A program made the position numbers and the translations under genes. The notes under the pieces are model-generated. The model saw only the letters and a list, made by a program, of their open reading frames with translations, did no database searches and was not told the DNA's origin. A DNA stretch of 64,000 bases, taken from positions 141,741 through 205,740 of IMG/VR virus record IMGVR_UViG_3300017565_000001. One strand, given 5' to 3'. The stretch's first letter is position 1. Every line of letters starts with the position of its first letter. Below, piece after piece: positions 3,798 through 58,703 of the stretch. Source of the DNA: a virus. Taxonomy: Duplodnaviria; Heunggongvirae; Uroviricota; Caudoviricetes.

Positions 3798-4046
3798 ATG
3801 GTTACTGTTTGGCGTGATGTTCCCGTGCGTATTCGTCACAAGATCAGCCACATCAAGAAGATTGGTGGACGTATTCGCCACGCGATCACGGATGATTATG
3901 GTGATCTACCAGTCTGTCGCATCAATCCCCAGACTGGTGTTTGGGAAGACGTAGTCAATCATCGAGGCATGGCTTATGCCGCGCGACGTCGTCTCAAGTA
4001 TCGCACGACTCGTAAAGAATTGCGCCAAAACACCATGCCGTTGTAA
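3798..4046 (+). CDS. hypothetical protein
   Basis: GAGGAG RBS. Confidence 0.6.
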   Translation: MVTVWRDVPVRIRHKISHIKKIGGRIRHAITDDYGDLPVCRINPQTGVWEDVVNHRGMAYAARRRLKYRTTRKELRQNTMPL

Positions 4047-20016: not shown

Positions 20017-23000
20017 ATGGCAGAAATTGGACAAATCGTATTCACTACTGCGGGAACTACTAGTTGGGTGGTCCCCGCAGGCGTCACCTCAATTTGTGGT
20101 GTGGCCGTCGGGCCGGCATCCAGAAACACGTCGAGTGGTGGTGGCGGTTTGTCTTGGAGAAACAATATCCCCGTCACGCCCGGTGAAACTCTTACGATTC
20201 AAATTGGCGTAAACCAAGCAAGTTCGGTCGCCAGTACCCATACTGCGCTATATCGTGGTTCAACAATCCTGATGATTGCCGAAGGCGCCAATGGCATCAA
20301 CGGTGGACGTGGTGGTAAGAACGCCAACATCATCAACGGTGGTGGTGGCAACGGCGGTAATTCCAATTCGACTGTTTATGCGGGCGGTGGTGGTGCGGGC
20401 GGCTATACTGGTGATGGTGGTAGTTCACCCCCGTACACTTCGTCCTATATCGGTGGTAATGGATCAGGTGGCGGTGGTGGAGCAGGTGGTAGTTACTATG
20501 CAGCGGGCGGTGGTGGCGTGGGCCTTATGGGCCAAGGAGCCAACGGTGTCGGTGGTAATGGTAGTGCATTCAACCAAATAAACTATGGGACTGGTGGTTC
20601 TGGTGGTGCCAACGGCGGTGCCTACATCAATGACGCCACCCCAGAACTTGGTGGCAATTATGGTGGTGGTAGTTCGTACGGTACCACCCTACCCGCAGTA
20701 GGATCACAAGTAGGCGCAATGCGTCTGATTTGGGGCCCTAACAGAGCCTTCCCATCAACCGGAACGGCTGATCAAGACCCAGAAGCTCCAATCAACTTGG
20801 GGCGTAGTGAATTCACTACAGGGACCAACACACTCGTAGTTCCTGCAGGTGCCAATTCGGCTTACCTGGTTATGGTTGGTTCTGGTGACTACGGTGGCGG
20901 TGGTTTGACTCATGGTCATGCGGTAGTAACACCAGGGGAAACACTCACCTTCATAGTTGACAGTAAGGGAACTGGTGTTTACGGTAACCGAGAAGGCAAT
21001 CCTTTGGCTTTGATAGGATTCGCCCATGCTGCCGTGGGCTCTGCCGGCGGTGTGGCATGGCGAGGTGGCCCATATTTCAAAATGATCGCTACTAATGCCG
21101 GTGGCCCAGCAGTTGGCCTCGCTGGTGGTGGTGCTGCTGGATATAGTGCTGCTGGTAATAGTGGACAAGGCGGTGCCGGCCAACGAGGAACAACTGGCTC
21201 GGGATCCAATGTATGTGGTTCCTATTCTTATGGTGGCGGTGGGGGCGGTGTCGGCCTCAATGGTGAAGGAGCATCAGGCGTAGCGCTTGGTGCTGGTGGT
21301 AGTGGTGGCACAAATGGTGGTAACGGGACTATTACTTCAAACGGCACATGTACGTATCAGACGAATCCCGGTAGTGGTGTGTTTTACACCGGAACCAGGT
21401 ATACGGGCGTGGGTGGACCGGGTGGTACTTATGGTGGTGGACGCGGCGCAAGCTCGGCAGCTTCAAATGCAGGCGCGGGCGGTGTGGCCATTACCTTCTT
21501 TAATACCATCTTGTATGGTAACAATAATGATTCGGTTATGTCAGCGCTCGATGCTCGAGACCAAGAAGCAAACCTGTCCACTGAATATAATTCACTTACC
21601 GCATCGCTAAATGCTTACACGGGCCCAACATCATCCAACGATGATGTTCTCGTTACGGCTCTGCCTTACGAATCAGCCACGTCAACGAATAACGAAACCC
21701 AAGTAACGGCGTTGACCCACTTGGGAGCAACCTCAAGCAATAACGATGCGCAAGTTGAAGTATTGGCGCATGGCGAACTCCAAATCTATTCGGGCGAAGC
21801 TACAACCCAAGTTCTGGGCCATGGTGATTTGCCTGACATGACGACCAATATCAATAGGACCCGCACTAGTTCGTTGGTTCTAGGCGATTTGCAGATCTTC
21901 TCTCAGAAAGCAACCGTTACCGCTCTGTCAAGCGGTGATACTGCGGCCGACAGTAGTTCGAATCAAGCAGTGACAACCGCTTTGGTTCGTGGTGACCTTC
22001 AAGTTTATTCGAATAGAGCCAGAGTGTCAGTGCTTGCTGACAACGAAATCAACACAGTGATGTTTCAAGTTGATGAACGACAACCAGGTTTGGTGTCAAC
22101 TTCGTCAACTTGGATGGTTACTAGTGATTTCGTGGGCAAGTATCGCTTGGATGATTCGTATGCTTGTGACGTCATAGTGAATGGCGTCCTGCAGACAAAG
22201 GCCCCTGGTAAGATTCTTGATTTGAATCTGGGTGATGCCATTCAGTTTCAAGCCACAGCCGATTCCTCTTATGGTGCTACGACTAATTTCACCATCACCG
22301 GTGACAATGTCCTGTATGTGAGCTGGATAAACAAGGCGTCCAACAGAATGGACTACTTGAATTTTGGTTTCTACGAAAACGTACTACCGTTCACATTTAC
22401 TACCGACCCACAAACGGTATCTGGGCTTGACACGTTCATCGACTACGAAGAAAATCCATATATGATTTTCAGTCGTAATGCTCGACTGCAATTCTTCGTG
22501 AACGATTCAGAGATTCCAGTGACAGAAGCGGCAGTCGTGAACGGTGATGTGATCCGCCTGTATTGGCGCGGTCCCATGCCAATCACCTTCCCAGAAATCG
22601 TTACCTACTATCTGGAGTCCACGTACCAGGATGCATTCTATCCTGTAGCTGAAATCAGTTCTAGGGCATTTGAATTGGGTGATCCGTTCCTGCGCCCAGA
22701 TATCACATTTGATTTTGATGCAACACCAGAACACCGTGTCACTGAATTGGTTGGCCTCAAGCTCGACCCACTCACGCCACAATTGACTGGTGTGAACATT
22801 CATACGATTCAACTAAGTCCAGTAGTGATGAACACACTCTCATTCTGGACTCAATTGAATCCCATTCTGCAAAAGGTCACAACACAATGGACGCAAACCA
22901 CTCCACTGTTGCAGAAGGTCACTACGCAGCAAACGCAAATGACTCCGATCCTTGGTGGTGTGACTACGCAATGGACTGATGTCAACACACCAAAGGTCAT

Positions 23001-30075: not shown

Positions 30076-30246
30076 AGTTGTTGACATGTGGCATTCCGTT
30101 TGCTAAAGTATGATCTGTGGTGCAGATTGCTAAATAGATTTGTCGCAACACTGCACAAAATTTTCACAAATAGTTATTGCAAACCCGAAAAGGTTCATGT
30201 ACTATTTGTTCTGTTGATTATTAAATTTCTCGAAAAGGAAACTTTC

Positions 30247-30357
30247 ATGAACGCTTATTCATATTTCTCGTACTGCTCGGAGACCGAAGGGTCGTCGCGC
30301 GGCTACGGCTATGAATGCGGATATGAGGGTACGTTCGGGGGTTGGCGAATGCGATAA
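30247..30357 (+). CDS. attenuator leader peptide 1 (36 aa, Tyr/Ser/Glu/Gly/Cys-rich)
   Basis: AAGGA RBS; MNAYSYFSYCSETEGSSRGYGYECGYEGTFGGWRMR directly before terminator and tRNA array. Confidence 0.8.
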   Translation: MNAYSYFSYCSETEGSSRGYGYECGYEGTFGGWRMR

Positions 30358-30420
30358 GCGTTCACCTAGCGAAAGCTAACAACCCTCGAAGCGTAATAGT
30401 TTCGGGGGTTTCGTGTTTTA
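30324..30420 (+). promoter_or_regulatory. attenuator 1: antiterminator 30324-30334/30380-30390 competing with terminator 30381-30392/30399-30410
   Basis: TTCGGGGGTTG pairs with CAACCCTCGAA (11 bp); AACCCTCGAAGC/GTTTCGGGGGTT (12 bp) followed by TCGTGTTTT. Confidence 0.8.
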
Positions 30421-30435
30421 GATGTTGAGATTTAC

Positions 30436-30522
30436 GGGTGGTAGGTGCGCTGGGCGCTAACTTGCCTCGAAAACAAGCCCCTCCAGTGATGGGGGATGGT
30501 TCGATTCCATTACTACCCGCCA
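30436..30522 (+). tRNA. tRNA-Ser(CGA), probably 8/4 acceptor/T-stem form
   Basis: GGGTGGTA/TACTACCC, long variable arm, G73, CCA. Confidence 0.8.
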
Positions 30523-30534
30523 AGAACGTTTCGT

Positions 30535-30619
30535 GTATCAGATGGTAAACTGGCTAAATCAGCTGTCTGTAAAACAGTCGCCTCCGGGCTTGTAGGTTCG
30601 ATTCCTACCTGATACACAA
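30535..30619 (+). tRNA. tRNA-Tyr(GTA)
   Basis: type II cloverleaf; ends ACAA (CCA not encoded). Confidence 0.9.
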
Positions 30620-30633
30620 AACGTTTTTGAAAT

Positions 30634-30718
30634 ATCCTGTGATGACGGCTGGGTACCGTCAGAAGACTTTCAATCTTCCCTGTTCCACAGTGGGGTTCGA
30701 TTCCCCCACAGGATACCA
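30634..30718 (+). tRNA. allo-tRNA-like species with TTC (Glu) anticodon, 8/4 fold, long variable arm
   Basis: ATCCTGTG/CACAGGAT; TGACGG/CCGTCA D-stem; GAAGA-CTTTCAA-TCTTC; CTGT/ACAG V-arm; GGGG/CCCC T-stem; CCA. Confidence 0.7.
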
Positions 30719-30727
30719 AGTTTTAAT

Positions 30728-30812
30728 GGGGATGCGGCTCAGATGGCGAGGGGCGGCTGACTGTAAATCAGTTCTTTCGGGTGAGTAGGTTCGAATCCTT
30801 CCATCCCCACCA
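30728..30812 (+). tRNA. tRNA-Tyr(GTA)
   Basis: cloverleaf with CCA. Confidence 0.95.
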
Positions 30813-30819
30813 AGTTTTT

Positions 30820-30895
30820 ACTCTGTTCGTCTATCGGTTAGGACGCTAGACTTTCAATCTGGAAAGACGGGTTCGACTCCCGTACAGAGTGCCAG
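30820..30895 (+). tRNA. tRNA-Glu(TTC)
   Basis: cloverleaf with CCA. Confidence 0.95.
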
Positions 30896-30905
30896 AATTA
30901 TTCCA

Positions 30906-30992
30906 GTCTTACTGATGAGCCCTAATGGGCGAAACAGTTGCAGGGAAAGATGGTGTTTCCGCCCCCATCAAGTATCTGTAGCTGTCTGAGAC
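30906..30992 (+). ncRNA. hammerhead ribozyme (type I); predicted cleavage after C30986
   Basis: stem I GTCTTA/TGAGAC, CTGATGA core, stem II GCCC/GGGC, GAAA, stem III CAGTTGCAG/CTGTAGCTG, GUC cleavage triplet. Confidence 0.9.
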
Positions 30993-31000
30993 ATGTTTGT

Positions 31001-31075
31001 ATTGCCGTTGACTTCTGGTGAGGTCTCCAGGCTTTCAACCTGGCTAGGCGAGTTCGATCCTCGTCGGCAATACAA
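31001..31075 (+). tRNA. tRNA-Glu(TTC)
   Basis: CCAGG-CTTTCAA-CCTGG; ends ACAA. Confidence 0.85.
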
Positions 31076-31086
31076 AGATGTTTCAT

Positions 31087-31183
31087 GTAGGGGATGTTCC
31101 GTAAGGCTGACGGTAAAATCGATAAAAGTGTGATGGGTGCTGCCCTAAACACCCCAGAGGTTCGAGTCCTCACCCCTACTCCA
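31087..31183 (+). ncRNA. tRNA-like RNA without a canonical anticodon loop
   Basis: GTAGGGG/CCCCTAC stem, T-arm GAGG-TTCGAGT-CCTC, TCCA end. Confidence 0.6.
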
Positions 31184-31192
31184 AGTTTTAAT

Positions 31193-31280
31193 GGGTTCCT
31201 TTCCCGCCGGCGGTCTGTAAAACCGTTGCCTAATAAGGTGGGTTGGTTGGCGTGAGGTTCGAAGCCTCGGGAACCCACCA
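31193..31280 (+). tRNA. non-canonical tRNA-Tyr(GTA)-like RNA lacking a normal D-arm
   Basis: GGGTTCC/GGAACCC, GCGGT-CTGTAAA-ACCGT, T-arm, CCA; only 10 nt between acceptor and anticodon arm. Confidence 0.7.
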
Positions 31281-31289
31281 AGTTTTAAT

Positions 31290-52522: not shown

Positions 52523-53387
52523 AGTACGGATTTTGATTGTGGGTGAGCGCGGCCTTGTTGCCCAACGACTTCGCGAACGGTTGGAAAAGGATGACTTTGA
52601 GGTCCAGGTCATCTCCACCGACGAAGCCCTTACTGGAAACCTGCAGGGCAGCGTAAACGGTAAGGATGTAGTCGTATTGTGTGGTCAAGATTTCGTGAGT
52701 TCTCAAGTCATGGATCGTCTCCCAGATGGAGTGCGAGTCCTAGATGTGAGTCCCACATTTCGCAACTATCCGTCATGGGTGTACGGACTGCCCGAACTAC
52801 ATGACGGGTATGATAAAATCCGTCATGCTACACGAGTGGCCAATCCTGGATGCTTTGCCACTGCGGCCATCCTTGCCTTGGAACCACCAACAAAAGGTCG
52901 CATGATACCCAGGTATACCCACGTGTATCTGGACGCGACCGCTGGATATTCTTCTGGTGGGACCAAGCTCATAAACCAGGTTACTGATGGACTCATGGTG
53001 AACGAAACCATGTTCAGTCTGAATCGAGAACACCGACACGTTCAGGAAATCAAAACACACTCAGGCGCAAGCGGTCCAGTGATTTTTCACCCCAAGGTCG
53101 ATCCGTTGACTTTCAGTGGGACTCGTATGGTGGTGAGCATCCCCAACGTTCGAGCAGACGAACTCAGAGCCTTGTACCGTGAAGTGTATCAGGGCACTGA
53201 AATTATTGTCCTTGACGACAATCCGTCCAGCATCAAGGTGAACGACTGGGCGGACAAGGAGGGGGCATGTTTGCGGGTGTATGAAAACGAAATAGGATCA
53301 ACCGTCATATGCACCCTAGACAACCTGTTGAAGGGTGCGGTGAGTGCAGCAGTGCGCAATGTCACTTTGATGACGCAGAAAGCCTAA
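52515..53387 (+). CDS. argC: N-acetyl-gamma-glutamyl-phosphate reductase
   Basis: G..GLV Rossmann start, DVS..FR...WVYGLPEL, RVANPGCFAT, GYSSGG, LDNLLKGA. Confidence 0.85.
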   Translation: MSEVRILIVGERGLVAQRLRERLEKDDFEVQVISTDEALTGNLQGSVNGKDVVVLCGQDFVSSQVMDRLPDGVRVLDVSPTFRNYPSWVYGLPELHDGYDKIRHATRVANPGCFATAAILALEPPTKGRMIPRYTHVYLDATAGYSSGGTKLINQVTDGLMVNETMFSLNREHRHVQEIKTHSGASGPVIFHPKVDPLTFSGTRMVVSIPNVRADELRALYREVYQGTEIIVLDDNPSSIKVNDWADKEGACLRVYENEIGSTVICTLDNLLKGAVSAAVRNVTLMTQKA

Positions 53388-57212: not shown

Positions 57213-57655
57213 TGAGTGAAATTGTGACCCTCAAGCAATTCAAATATCGCAGTCAGACTATCAAGTGGTCCTTTTGGTTAGTCATTGGCTATTGCGCATG
57301 GTTTTTCTTATGCGAGGGAATGGATTATCTGGTCGCAAAAGGTGGCAATCCCAGTAGTTCGTATACAAGTGACATTCACGTCACTCCCGTTACTGTTGAA
57401 TCAAACAATGGATGTACTGGCGGTAAGGGATCTTCATGCAATTACACGATTGCATGGTCGAATGGTGAACGCTATTACATTCAGAGCTCGAACGCTTACG
57501 CTGTCGGCCAAACTATCTACCATTCGGCATGGACCAACGCTGACGGGAAAACTTTCTATCGATATAGCTGGTCACCCGCCAAGAATGAAACGCCCCCAAC
57601 CTGGCTGTCAAAATATTTCATGAAGGACAACAGTGTCAAGCGCAACAAAGACTAA
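57212..57655 (+). CDS. membrane-anchored exported protein
   Basis: N-terminal TM helix, Cys pair. Confidence 0.6.
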   Translation: MSEIVTLKQFKYRSQTIKWSFWLVIGYCAWFFLCEGMDYLVAKGGNPSSSYTSDIHVTPVTVESNNGCTGGKGSSCNYTIAWSNGERYYIQSSNAYAVGQTIYHSAWTNADGKTFYRYSWSPAKNETPPTWLSKYFMKDNSVKRNKD

Positions 57656-57917
57656 GGAAAAGAAGCCCAAAGTTAAGGCAAGTGACAGTGCCAAAGCGTA
57701 CACCTACAACTTGCCTTCTGGTCCTCTACCTGCAAGGGATTTCTTTCGATCAATCATTGCTGAGGTTCCTGAGGAGAAGATTCTGCAATACGACCATGAA
57801 AACGGGCATATCACTCGTGAAGCGCTTCTTCAGTCGATTGATGATGACACAGAATTGGCAAAACGATTCATCACCGACATGATGCGAATCACTCGTGACA
57901 TGATGATTTACCGATAA
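57633..57917 (+). CDS. hypothetical protein
   Basis: AAGGA RBS, GTG start. Confidence 0.55.
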   Translation: MSSATKTKEKKPKVKASDSAKAYTYNLPSGPLPARDFFRSIIAEVPEEKILQYDHENGHITREALLQSIDDDTELAKRFITDMMRITRDMMIYR

Positions 57918-57987
57918 CCAGGTTCCCTTGATCCCCAGTTGCCATTCCTTTAGATTGACTGGTAACTTATCTTCATGTTGATAAACC

Positions 57988-58359
57988 GTGAACATTCTGT
58001 CCAAAATAATTAAATTCTTCCAGACACTCACTGCACCGTTAAAAAATCAGCCCATTGAAAAATGGCTGCTGGTGCGAACGTATGTGGTGGATGTTACCGT
58101 CACCCGCTCACCAGAAACAGACAGAGTAGGTGAAACTGGATTCGCGTATGCTTACATGTTTGAATCCGAATCTGGTAAGCGGCGAGTTGAATTTGGATGC
58201 AGTCTTTCTGGCTTTGATGCCGAGACATCATTCAAGAAATTGCGAGACTGGGCCGAACATGTTTATCCATGGGTGAATGGTCGGTATTTGGCCAATACGC
58301 CAACTTATTCCGAAGCTGAAAGCTTGGATGTTGCGGCAAGGCTCAAGGATTGTTCATGA
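57988..58359 (+). CDS. hypothetical protein, paralog B1
   Basis: FESESGKRRVE ... YPWVNGRY...P.Y. Confidence 0.7.
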   Translation: MNILSKIIKFFQTLTAPLKNQPIEKWLLVRTYVVDVTVTRSPETDRVGETGFAYAYMFESESGKRRVEFGCSLSGFDAETSFKKLRDWAEHVYPWVNGRYLANTPTYSEAESLDVAARLKDCS

Positions 58360-58703
58360 AGACACTTCAAACATGGTTCAAAAATCTGTTCACCCGCAAG
58401 CGTGAATACCTGGTACATACCCTTGAACTGACTATCACAATCAATTACGTGAATCAGTTCAAAGAAGTCAGTTATACGGAAAACGACGTAATGTTTCGCA
58501 TCCACTTGTTTGAATCAAACAAAGGCAAGCGACGTTATGAAGTTTTCTGTACCAGTAGTCGTTGTGATGCTCAGGGAATCGTAAAACGTCAGACTGAGTT
58601 CCACGATATTGTATATCCATGGCTTCATGGGCGATATGTTGAAGGTATCCCTCATTACACACAAGTCGCAGCAGAAGACCTCATGAAAAAGTTGGGTGAA
58701 TAA
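58356..58703 (+). CDS. hypothetical protein, paralog B2
   Basis: FESNKGKRRYE ... YPWLHGRY..IP.Y. Confidence 0.7.
   Translation: MKTLQTWFKNLFTRKREYLVHTLELTITINYVNQFKEVSYTENDVMFRIHLFESNKGKRRYEVFCTSSRCDAQGIVKRQTEFHDIVYPWLHGRYVEGIPHYTQVAAEDLMKKLGE

Follow-up and report, generated by a model that had tools for sequence, protein, structure and literature searches.

Between two tRNA-Glu genes of a phage tRNA array lies a complete type I hammerhead ribozyme, with the full consensus core and three helices (positions 30906–30992, + strand, of the window, by which we mean the whole 64,000-nt stretch of DNA that was analyzed). We propose that this hammerhead probably cleaves itself co-transcriptionally, that the cut defines the 5′ end of the precursor of the downstream tRNA-Glu, and that refolding of the RNA then traps the product. 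What we grade as shown is the anatomy of the element, its uniqueness in the genome, its conservation and covariation, the alternative pairing of one of its strands, and recurrence in other phages; catalysis, the order of events and the enzymes acting downstream are inferred.

Anatomy and specificity of the hammerhead

The hammerhead and its upstream flank consist of the following features, where L225 and L205 are contigs of related phages described further below.

30820–30894, + strand: upstream tRNA-Glu(UUC), found by ARAGORN and scoring 57.7 bits with Rfam tRNA; CCA encoded at 30892–30894
30895–30905, + strand: AU-rich 11-nt spacer GAAUUAUUCCA, kept in L225 and L205
30906–30992, + strand: the whole type I hammerhead ribozyme (MFE fold, descriptor match, conservation in L225 and L205)
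30906–30911 with 30987–30992, + strand: stem I, GUCUUA with UGAGAC, 6 bp, open (sequence, MFE fold)
30912–30918, + strand: catalytic core strand CUGAUGA, i.e., C3-U4-G5-A6-U7-G8-A9 (sequence)
30919–30930, + strand: stem II hairpin GCCC-UAAU-GGGC, 4 bp, with G10.1-C11.1 as closing pair (MFE fold)
30931–30933, + strand: core G12-A13-A14 (sequence; invariant in relatives)
30934–30985, + strand: extended stem III, 52 nt (MFE fold, relatives)
30934–30944 with 30975–30985, + strand: basal helix of stem III, 11 bp, beginning with A15.1-U16.1 and then C-G (MFE fold)
30945–30948 / 30970–30974, + strand: internal loop of stem III, GAAA/AAGUA (MFE fold)
30949–30953 with 30965–30969, + strand: distal hairpin of stem III, GAUGG/CCAUC, with an 11-nt loop (MFE fold)
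30986–30987, + strand: predicted scissile bond between C17 (30986) and U1.1 (30987), triplet GUC (hammerhead geometry and sequence)

The requirements of the conserved core (C3–A9, G12 A13 A14, the A15.1-U16.1 pair, and an H17 that is not G) are all met, at 30912–30918, 30931–30934, 30985 and 30986. The MFE fold of 30906–30992 is exactly the three-way junction of a hammerhead (−30.6 kcal/mol, z −2.98, ViennaRNA), and fold and descriptor agree on the three helices, of which stem I is open and the other two are capped by loops. An initial annotation had claimed the core elements, the three stems and an extra hairpin in stem III, all of which held in sequence and MFE fold, as did the two flanking tRNA-Glu genes in a phage tRNA array (57.7 and 45.7 bits with Rfam tRNA). 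It also placed the cut after 30986, leaving a 14-nt leader on the tRNA-Glu that starts at 31001; that position held, while cleavage itself is predicted only.

No tertiary contact between stem I and loop II was identified at 30906–30992. The sequence AUUA at 30897–30900 is complementary to the loop II UAAU, but this register is lost in L205, and across 113 phage hammerheads pairing between loop II and the 5′ flank is only weakly enriched (26 observed versus 17.4 ± 3.5 expected). A candidate GGAAA/UUUCC pseudoknot within stem III was ruled out, as its loop is not kept in L205.

To a descriptor run on both strands in three topologies, 30906–30992 is the sole strong hammerhead in the 424,529-bp genome. 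Shuffling the genome 300 times produced 19 minimal matches in all (0.06 per genome), none of them with stems to rival 6/4/11. Weak type II and type III descriptor matches elsewhere in the genome were dismissed as being at chance level.

The covariance models require more care. A search of the window at the Rfam gathering score returned tRNAs only, with no hammerhead model reaching its threshold, so the Infernal check that the initial annotation had called for is formally a failure. In E-value mode the best model in the right topology is RF03152 (RAGATH-1-hammerhead), with 19.7 of 56.3 bits; RF00008 reaches 22.7 of 48.5 bits but aligns the element wrongly. However, this shortfall is not diagnostic for 30906–30992, because clean short type I hammerheads from phages (L002, L003, L004, L016, L082, L088, L140 and L148) also fail every Rfam hammerhead gathering score. 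The Rfam hammerhead models thus do not cover the short phage type I class, and routine annotation will not report such hammerheads. A purpose-built covariance model trained on 30 phage type I hammerheads, R1, finds 30906–30992 as its only match in the window, but the match is weak (16.2 bits, E 0.055), and a 34-nt insert in stem III throws its 3′ end out of alignment. The same model misses the L205 hammerhead, whose core reads CUGACGA.

Conservation and the helix that competes with stem I

Relatives of the phage (L225, L205 and L207–L212, all Logan/ENA contigs) were reached only through homologues of the neighboring 216-aa and VWA proteins. Scans of IMG/VR and JGI metagenomes with DNA and peptide patterns revealed no close relatives, and homology searches with the 1466-aa protein, the tail sheath or the 89-aa upstream ORF did not find these relatives. 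L225 is closely and L205 more distantly related, with neighboring proteins that are 61–86% identical and syntenic. Both carry an orthologue of the hammerhead (L225 478–564, L205 6278–6366) at the same array position, between the same tRNA-Glu and the same tRNA-Glu lacking CCA. Looking for hammerheads at the same position in related arrays had been suggested at the outset, and the result is thus positive for these two contigs and negative for L207–L212.

The pattern of changes is that of a maintained structure. The core is invariant in both relatives except for the free position N7, which is U to C in L205. Stem II in L205 has one double change, from C-G to U-A, and the basal helix of stem III keeps 11 of its 11 pairs there with one double change (G-C to A-U) and four one-sided changes compatible with wobble pairing. 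In stem I the change among the relatives is from U-G to C-G, and in the distal hairpin pairing is kept despite changed sequence and length, the loop having diverged in L205. Counted over 26 pairs of the hammerhead, 98.7% of cells are paired, compared with 32–42% in slid controls, with three compensatory double changes. Conservation and covariation thus make a functional ribozyme likely, with catalysis remaining an inference, but we note that this comparative support rests on three sequences only (the window, L225 and L205), two of which are close.

These data bear on the possibility that 30906–30992 is a chance match or an inactive relic. In its favor, no Rfam model matches at the gathering score and the genome holds a single copy. 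Against it, shuffled genomes contain no equal, and the core is invariant and the helices covary in relatives whose adjacent tRNA differs at about 30% of positions. We therefore consider this explanation very improbable.

In the L207–L212 lineage, whose VWA protein is 78% identical, there is a related Ser/Tyr/Glu array in which neither a hammerhead nor a CCA-less tRNA-Glu was found. Because these two elements are jointly present in three contigs and jointly absent in L207–L212, they appear to form one optional module. One contig of this lineage shows a separate peculiarity: at L210 7579–8125 a Tyr-like tRNA is interrupted just past the anticodon by an insert of ∼480 nt encoding an HNH endonuclease, whereas the same tRNA is uninterrupted in L207–L209, L211 and L212, which read through the array. 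The insert could be an intron or homing element, which it resembles.

On the downstream side of the predicted cut the module continues as follows.

30987–31000, + strand: 14-nt leader of the 3′ product, beginning with the 6 nt UGAGAC of stem I (its 3′ strand) and pairing over its full length with the trailer
31001–31072, + strand: tRNA-Glu(UUC), 45.7 bits with Rfam tRNA, discriminator A31072, no encoded CCA (CAA comes next)
31073–31085, + strand: 13-nt trailer, pairing with the leader
31087–31183, + strand: next tRNA-like element, folding with acceptor stem, T arm and CCA, 1 nt beyond the leader–trailer helix

The tRNA-Glu passes the Rfam tRNA gathering score (45.7 versus a threshold of 29 bits), its orthologues score 69.5 bits in L205 and 44.9 bits in L225, and the pairs of its cloverleaf covary. 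Beyond the 7-bp acceptor stem, pairing of the leader with A31072 and the trailer gives 13 extra pairs and one G/G mismatch, for a helix of 20 bp overall. This helix begins right at the cleavage site: the first base beyond it, U30987, pairs with A31085, and U31000 pairs with A31072. The fold of 30987–31095 has −47.7 kcal/mol and z −5.18. The leader is identical between the window and L205 in 12 of 14 nt and the trailer in 13 of 13, both being more conserved than the tRNA body, and the trailer is the same in all three sequences. Leader–trailer helix and cloverleaf together are 99% paired over the three sequences, with seven double changes.

Since the helix starts at U30987, UGAGAC (30987–30992) has two mutually exclusive partners, either GUCUUA at 30906–30911, as in stem I, or GUUUCA at 31080–31085. 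When the full 196-nt region is folded, the leader–trailer helix wins and stem I is lost. The initial annotation had overlooked this helix and its competition with stem I. As the helix displaces stem I, the active form of the ribozyme would exist mainly before the trailer is transcribed, and as the full-length RNA at equilibrium favors an inactive conformer, the efficiency of cleavage would depend on the kinetics of folding.

In the mechanism that we propose, the hammerhead would fold as soon as RNA polymerase has passed 30992 and would cut after C30986. In hammerheads of type I the cleavage site lies on the 3′ side of the ribozyme, which therefore stays on the upstream RNA and sets the 5′-OH end of the downstream one. 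Specifically, the upstream product would comprise tRNA-Glu 30820–30894, the spacer and the ribozyme, ending in a 2′,3′-cyclic phosphate, while the downstream product would start with a 5′-OH at U30987. About 90 nt further on, the trailer at 31073–31085 would emerge, capture the freed leader and strip UGAGAC from stem I. The resulting 20-bp helix would be flush with the new 5′ end and carry tRNA-Glu 31001–31072 on top, and the strand swap would free the ribozyme and render the cut irreversible.

Since the precursor would retain 14 nt of leader and 13 nt of trailer and lacks an encoded CCA, RNase P, a 3′ nuclease and a CCA-adding enzyme would still be needed: RNase P to remove the leader, followed by removal of the trailer and addition of CCA. 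The suggestion that a hammerhead here makes processing independent of host RNases is accordingly unsupported. The following tRNA-like element begins 1 nt past the helix in the window and 2 nt past it in L205, so a cut by RNase P at that element would, by inference, set the 3′ end of the tRNA-Glu precursor. The 20-bp helix may also be a site for RNase III, though this is no more than a guess. The points that count against the mechanism are the sub-threshold scores with Rfam and the weak R1 match, the basis of only three sequences, the lack of an identified contact between stem I and loop II, the existence of a second CCA-less tRNA that manages without a ribozyme (see below), and the inactive conformer of the full-length RNA.

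The last of these could alternatively be read as the function itself. On this view the element is a folding switch or timer: stem I and the leader–trailer helix would compete, their balance setting the fraction of RNA that is cut and thereby tuning the release of tRNA-Glu, with transcription speed, Mg or temperature as examples of possible cues. The two mutually exclusive 6-bp partners of UGAGAC, the preference of the full-length MFE fold for the uncut, inactive form, and the sequence conservation of leader and trailer are all in line with this. However, no ligand-binding or sensor element is visible, and every hammerhead–tRNA fusion has the same competition (see below), for which product release is a simpler explanation. 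We thus regard a switch as unlikely and prefer the product trap.

Hammerheads at tRNA 5′ ends in other phages

While sampling hammerheads in IMG/VR we met with other hammerhead–tRNA cases, in contigs unrelated to the window's phage. In eight units (L016, L082, L088 twice, L140, L184, L200 and L202) the cut falls exactly at +1 of a tRNA-Tyr(GUA). The coordinates of four of these, and of a further unit discussed below, are:

L082 8394–8525: hammerhead–tRNA-Tyr fusion
L088 6478–6606 and 6628–6756: two hammerhead–tRNA-Tyr fusions
L016 5908–5777, − strand: hammerhead–tRNA-Tyr fusion
L356 2133–2317, − strand: hammerhead with a tRNA-like unit, of which L427 holds a copy from about 7773

A tRNA-His in L148 is cut at −1, so that it keeps its characteristic G-1, and in L162 the cut is one base ahead of a tRNA-Gly. 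Stem I covaries with the acceptor stem in each of the Tyr, His and Gly fusions. If these hammerheads cleave, which is inferred from their sequences, the direct fusions could yield the mature 5′ end as a 5′-OH without RNase P. Tyr dominates among the direct fusions found.

The L356/L427 unit is closer in design to the window. Its stem III follows the same plan, with a 10-bp helix, an internal loop GAAC/AAGUA and a distal hairpin, and it is joined to a non-canonical tRNA-like RNA whose 7-nt leader, being the 3′ strand of stem I, pairs with the trailer flush with the cut. A viral scan for the CAAGUAU motif of stem III returned only L356/L427. A leader of 15 nt separates the hammerhead cut from a tRNA-His in L437. 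BLAST searches for hammerhead–tRNA-Tyr units matched no cultured phage, and a sample of at least 120 pattern matches from cellular genomes contained two type I hammerheads and no tRNA fusion. Together, these independent phage hammerheads fused to tRNA 5′ ends make a role in tRNA processing likely.

Two other matches were of a different kind. A pattern match in PaBG (L161) was rejected as a chance match and not a hammerhead. On the − strand of L031, a hammerhead near oriented position 4009 has a 56-nt stem III that contains a T-arm-like hairpin, GGGUGCAAAUCCCGCC; this stem III resembles, and may be, a tRNA-like piece nested in a ribozyme.

A more conservative alternative is that 30906–30992 is a generic cutter of phage transcripts that yields fragments of differing stability, its position in a tRNA array being incidental. 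Hammerheads have been described from intergenic regions of phages, with the cutting of polycistronic mRNAs as their proposed role (Perreault et al., 2011; PMC3088659), the same 24-nt sequence of core and stem II recurs between protein genes of three unrelated phage contigs, and L004 carries several hammerheads, all of which fits the operon processing proposed for phage hammerheads in that study. What speaks against it is that the cut exactly abuts a conserved helix of the tRNA that follows, that the hammerhead is strictly linked to the CCA-less tRNA-Glu across relatives, that L356 shares the flush design, and that exact +1 tRNA fusions exist in other phages. An incidental position therefore seems unlikely to us, and we retain the reading that the cut makes the 5′ end of a tRNA precursor.

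In its core, junction, open stem I of 5–6 bp, short stem II hairpin and phage setting, 30906–30992 resembles the type I hammerheads of phages and prophages (PMC3088659; Rfam clan CL00010, RF03152), and the sequence of its stem I is close to the RF03152 consensus. Unlike those, which lie between protein genes, it sits between tRNA genes, has a 52-nt stem III with a conserved, AGUA/GAA-like internal loop and a distal hairpin, and uses the 3′ strand of stem I also as the start of a tRNA leader–trailer helix. The last feature is shared with the direct fusions (L016, L082, L088, L140, L184, L200, L202, L148 and L162), which are likewise type I hammerheads in tRNA arrays and in which a single strand serves both as the 3′ half of stem I and as the 5′ half of the tRNA-closing helix. 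Because this strand has both roles, a strand swap would follow cleavage in the fusions as in the window. The difference lies in where the cut falls: at +1 (Tyr) or −1 (His, Gly) in the fusions, where the mature 5′ end would be made directly, but 14 nt upstream in the window, at the base of an extended helix, where RNase P would still be required.

The other known comparison is with theta ribozymes, minimal HDV-like ribozymes that process the 3′ trailers of phage tRNAs and are reported from gut phages with suppressor tRNAs (Kienbeck et al., 2024; PMC10879173). A parallel with these had been drawn in the initial annotation and holds in part. Both are small self-cleaving RNAs within phage tRNA transcripts with a proposed role in processing tRNA ends, but the geometry is not shared: theta ribozymes act at 3′ trailers, whereas the hammerhead would remain upstream and create the 5′ end of the downstream precursor. 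The reported theta cases involve suppressor tRNAs; the hammerhead of this 424-kb phage is associated with a sense tRNA-Glu instead. Its predicted cleavage site is 92 nt past the CCA of the upstream tRNA and the ribozyme would stay attached to that tRNA, so the element does not qualify as a theta-type 3′-trailer ribozyme; HDV-like families found no match on 30880–31010 even in E-value mode, and the fold is that of a hammerhead.

Engineered hammerhead–tRNA "transzyme" cassettes, and cassettes with a 5′ hammerhead and a 3′ HDV ribozyme, are used to give defined 5′-OH ends. The transzyme design likewise places a hammerhead 5′ of a tRNA and forms stem I with the tRNA's own 5′ sequence; such cassettes are laboratory designs, whereas 30906–30992 is natural and conserved and has the leader–trailer extension. 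Precursors of rRNA and of some tRNAs have long leader–trailer duplexes that are cut by RNase III. The duplex in the window similarly encloses a mature RNA, but its outer end would be made by a ribozyme. Natural hammerheads in phage tRNA arrays or at tRNA 5′ ends were not reported in the literature we searched, but our coverage was incomplete and we can thus not be certain that this use of a hammerhead is a first.

A bolder reading, for and against which we find the case evenly balanced, is that phages generally use type I hammerheads to make tRNA 5′ ends, mirroring theta ribozymes at 3′ ends. Self-cleavage would give the mature or near-mature 5′ end as a 5′-OH, for Tyr, His and Gly with no need of RNase P and for tRNA-Glu before RNase P acts; the helix closing each tRNA would itself serve as the product trap, and the window element would be the leader–trailer variant of the class. 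If this is true, phages use self-cleaving RNAs at both ends of tRNAs, hammerheads at the 5′ and HDV-like ribozymes at the 3′ end, and some phage tRNAs could bypass RNase P and carry 5′-OH ends, which would matter for defence systems that target tRNAs and for counter-defence, for what phage RtcB and RNA kinases do, and for the processing of very long tRNA arrays. Most hammerheads of bacteria and phages have not been assigned a function. In the present case the geometry suggests one that can be tested directly, since the cut falls at the end of a tRNA-closing helix, and at tRNA +1 in other phages.

The phage and its tRNA array

The window corresponds to bases 141741–205740 of a 424,529-bp IMG/VR virus record with direct terminal repeats. 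The source is a giant tailed phage, the nearest cultured phages by tail sheath being PaBG (a Pseudomonas phage), NCTB and Lu11, at no more than 47% identity. In the genome as a whole ARAGORN calls one tmRNA and 56 tRNA genes; 55 of the 56 are on the + strand, as are the hammerhead and every tRNA gene of its array. The dense array runs in the order Ser, Tyr-like, Glu (long), Tyr, Glu, hammerhead, Glu, two tRNA-like elements, Glu. Among the 3′ ends that were checked, CCA is encoded in tRNA-Ser, the three other tRNA-Glu genes and tRNA-Tyr 30728–30812, and is absent from tRNA-Glu 31001–31072 and from the Tyr-like tRNA at 30535–30617.

The phage also encodes a full-length RtcB (411 bits), two Rnl2-family RNA ligase domains and a protein of the CCA-adding/poly(A) polymerase family, and its genome contains a tRNA with a CUA (amber-reading) anticodon. 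In genome C1 these are located at:

57503–58618 (L226): RtcB
110958–111416 (L227) and 20534–21139 (L228): Rnl2 domains
100867–101235 (L229): CCA-adding-family protein
53129–53203: tRNA with CUA anticodon

We count the CCA-adding-family enzyme as support for the proposed maturation of tRNA-Glu. The ligases raise a further alternative, in which the hammerhead makes ends for ligation and its 5′-OH or 2′,3′-cyclic phosphate feeds the RtcB or Rnl2-type ligases of the phage to give circular or rejoined RNA. For this speak the full-length RtcB and the two Rnl2-family domains, and the helix that holds both ends of the product together. However, nothing that could supply a cyclic phosphate, such as a second ribozyme, lies at the 3′ end of the module, RNase P acting at the next tRNA would leave a 3′-OH, which RtcB does not join, and the phage RtcB is more simply explained as serving tRNA repair. 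Ligation is thus a remote possibility, and the simpler reading of the cut as the start of a tRNA precursor is preferred here too.

The Tyr-like tRNA at 30535–30617 offers an internal comparison. It has its own 20-bp leader–trailer helix with one mismatch (region 30521–30630, −42.3 kcal/mol, z −6.5), in a module without a ribozyme, and this helix starts within the CCA of the upstream tRNA-Ser. In L207 a perfect 20-bp version of the helix is found. The module shares with that of tRNA-Glu 31001–31072 the pairing UUUGU/ACAAA beside the acceptor stem. Since this long-stemmed, CCA-less tRNA manages without a ribozyme, a ribozyme is not obligatory for such precursors.

Control of the array by an attenuator, as initially annotated, rests only on one terminator-like hairpin at 30381–30410, which has 12 pairs followed by a U-rich tail and lies between the 89-aa ORF (30088–30357) and the first tRNA of the array. 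The hairpin is also present in L225, and the ORF is conserved.

Within the array, the tRNA-like elements at 31087–31183 and 31192–31283, and another at 30634–30718, have an acceptor stem, a T arm and CCA together with aberrant cores; two of the three, 31087–31183 among them, gave no Rfam tRNA match even when E was relaxed to 10. The array also holds several repeats of Tyr(GUA)-like and Glu(UUC) units, and such repeats would be compatible with decoys or spares against anticodon nucleases, which is one possibility. Finally, the same tRNA-rich region of the phage contains, outside the window, a GOLLD RNA with an internal tRNA (L230 10868–11332, genome C1 215867–216331), which matches Rfam RF02032 with 199.9 bits (E 5e-55).
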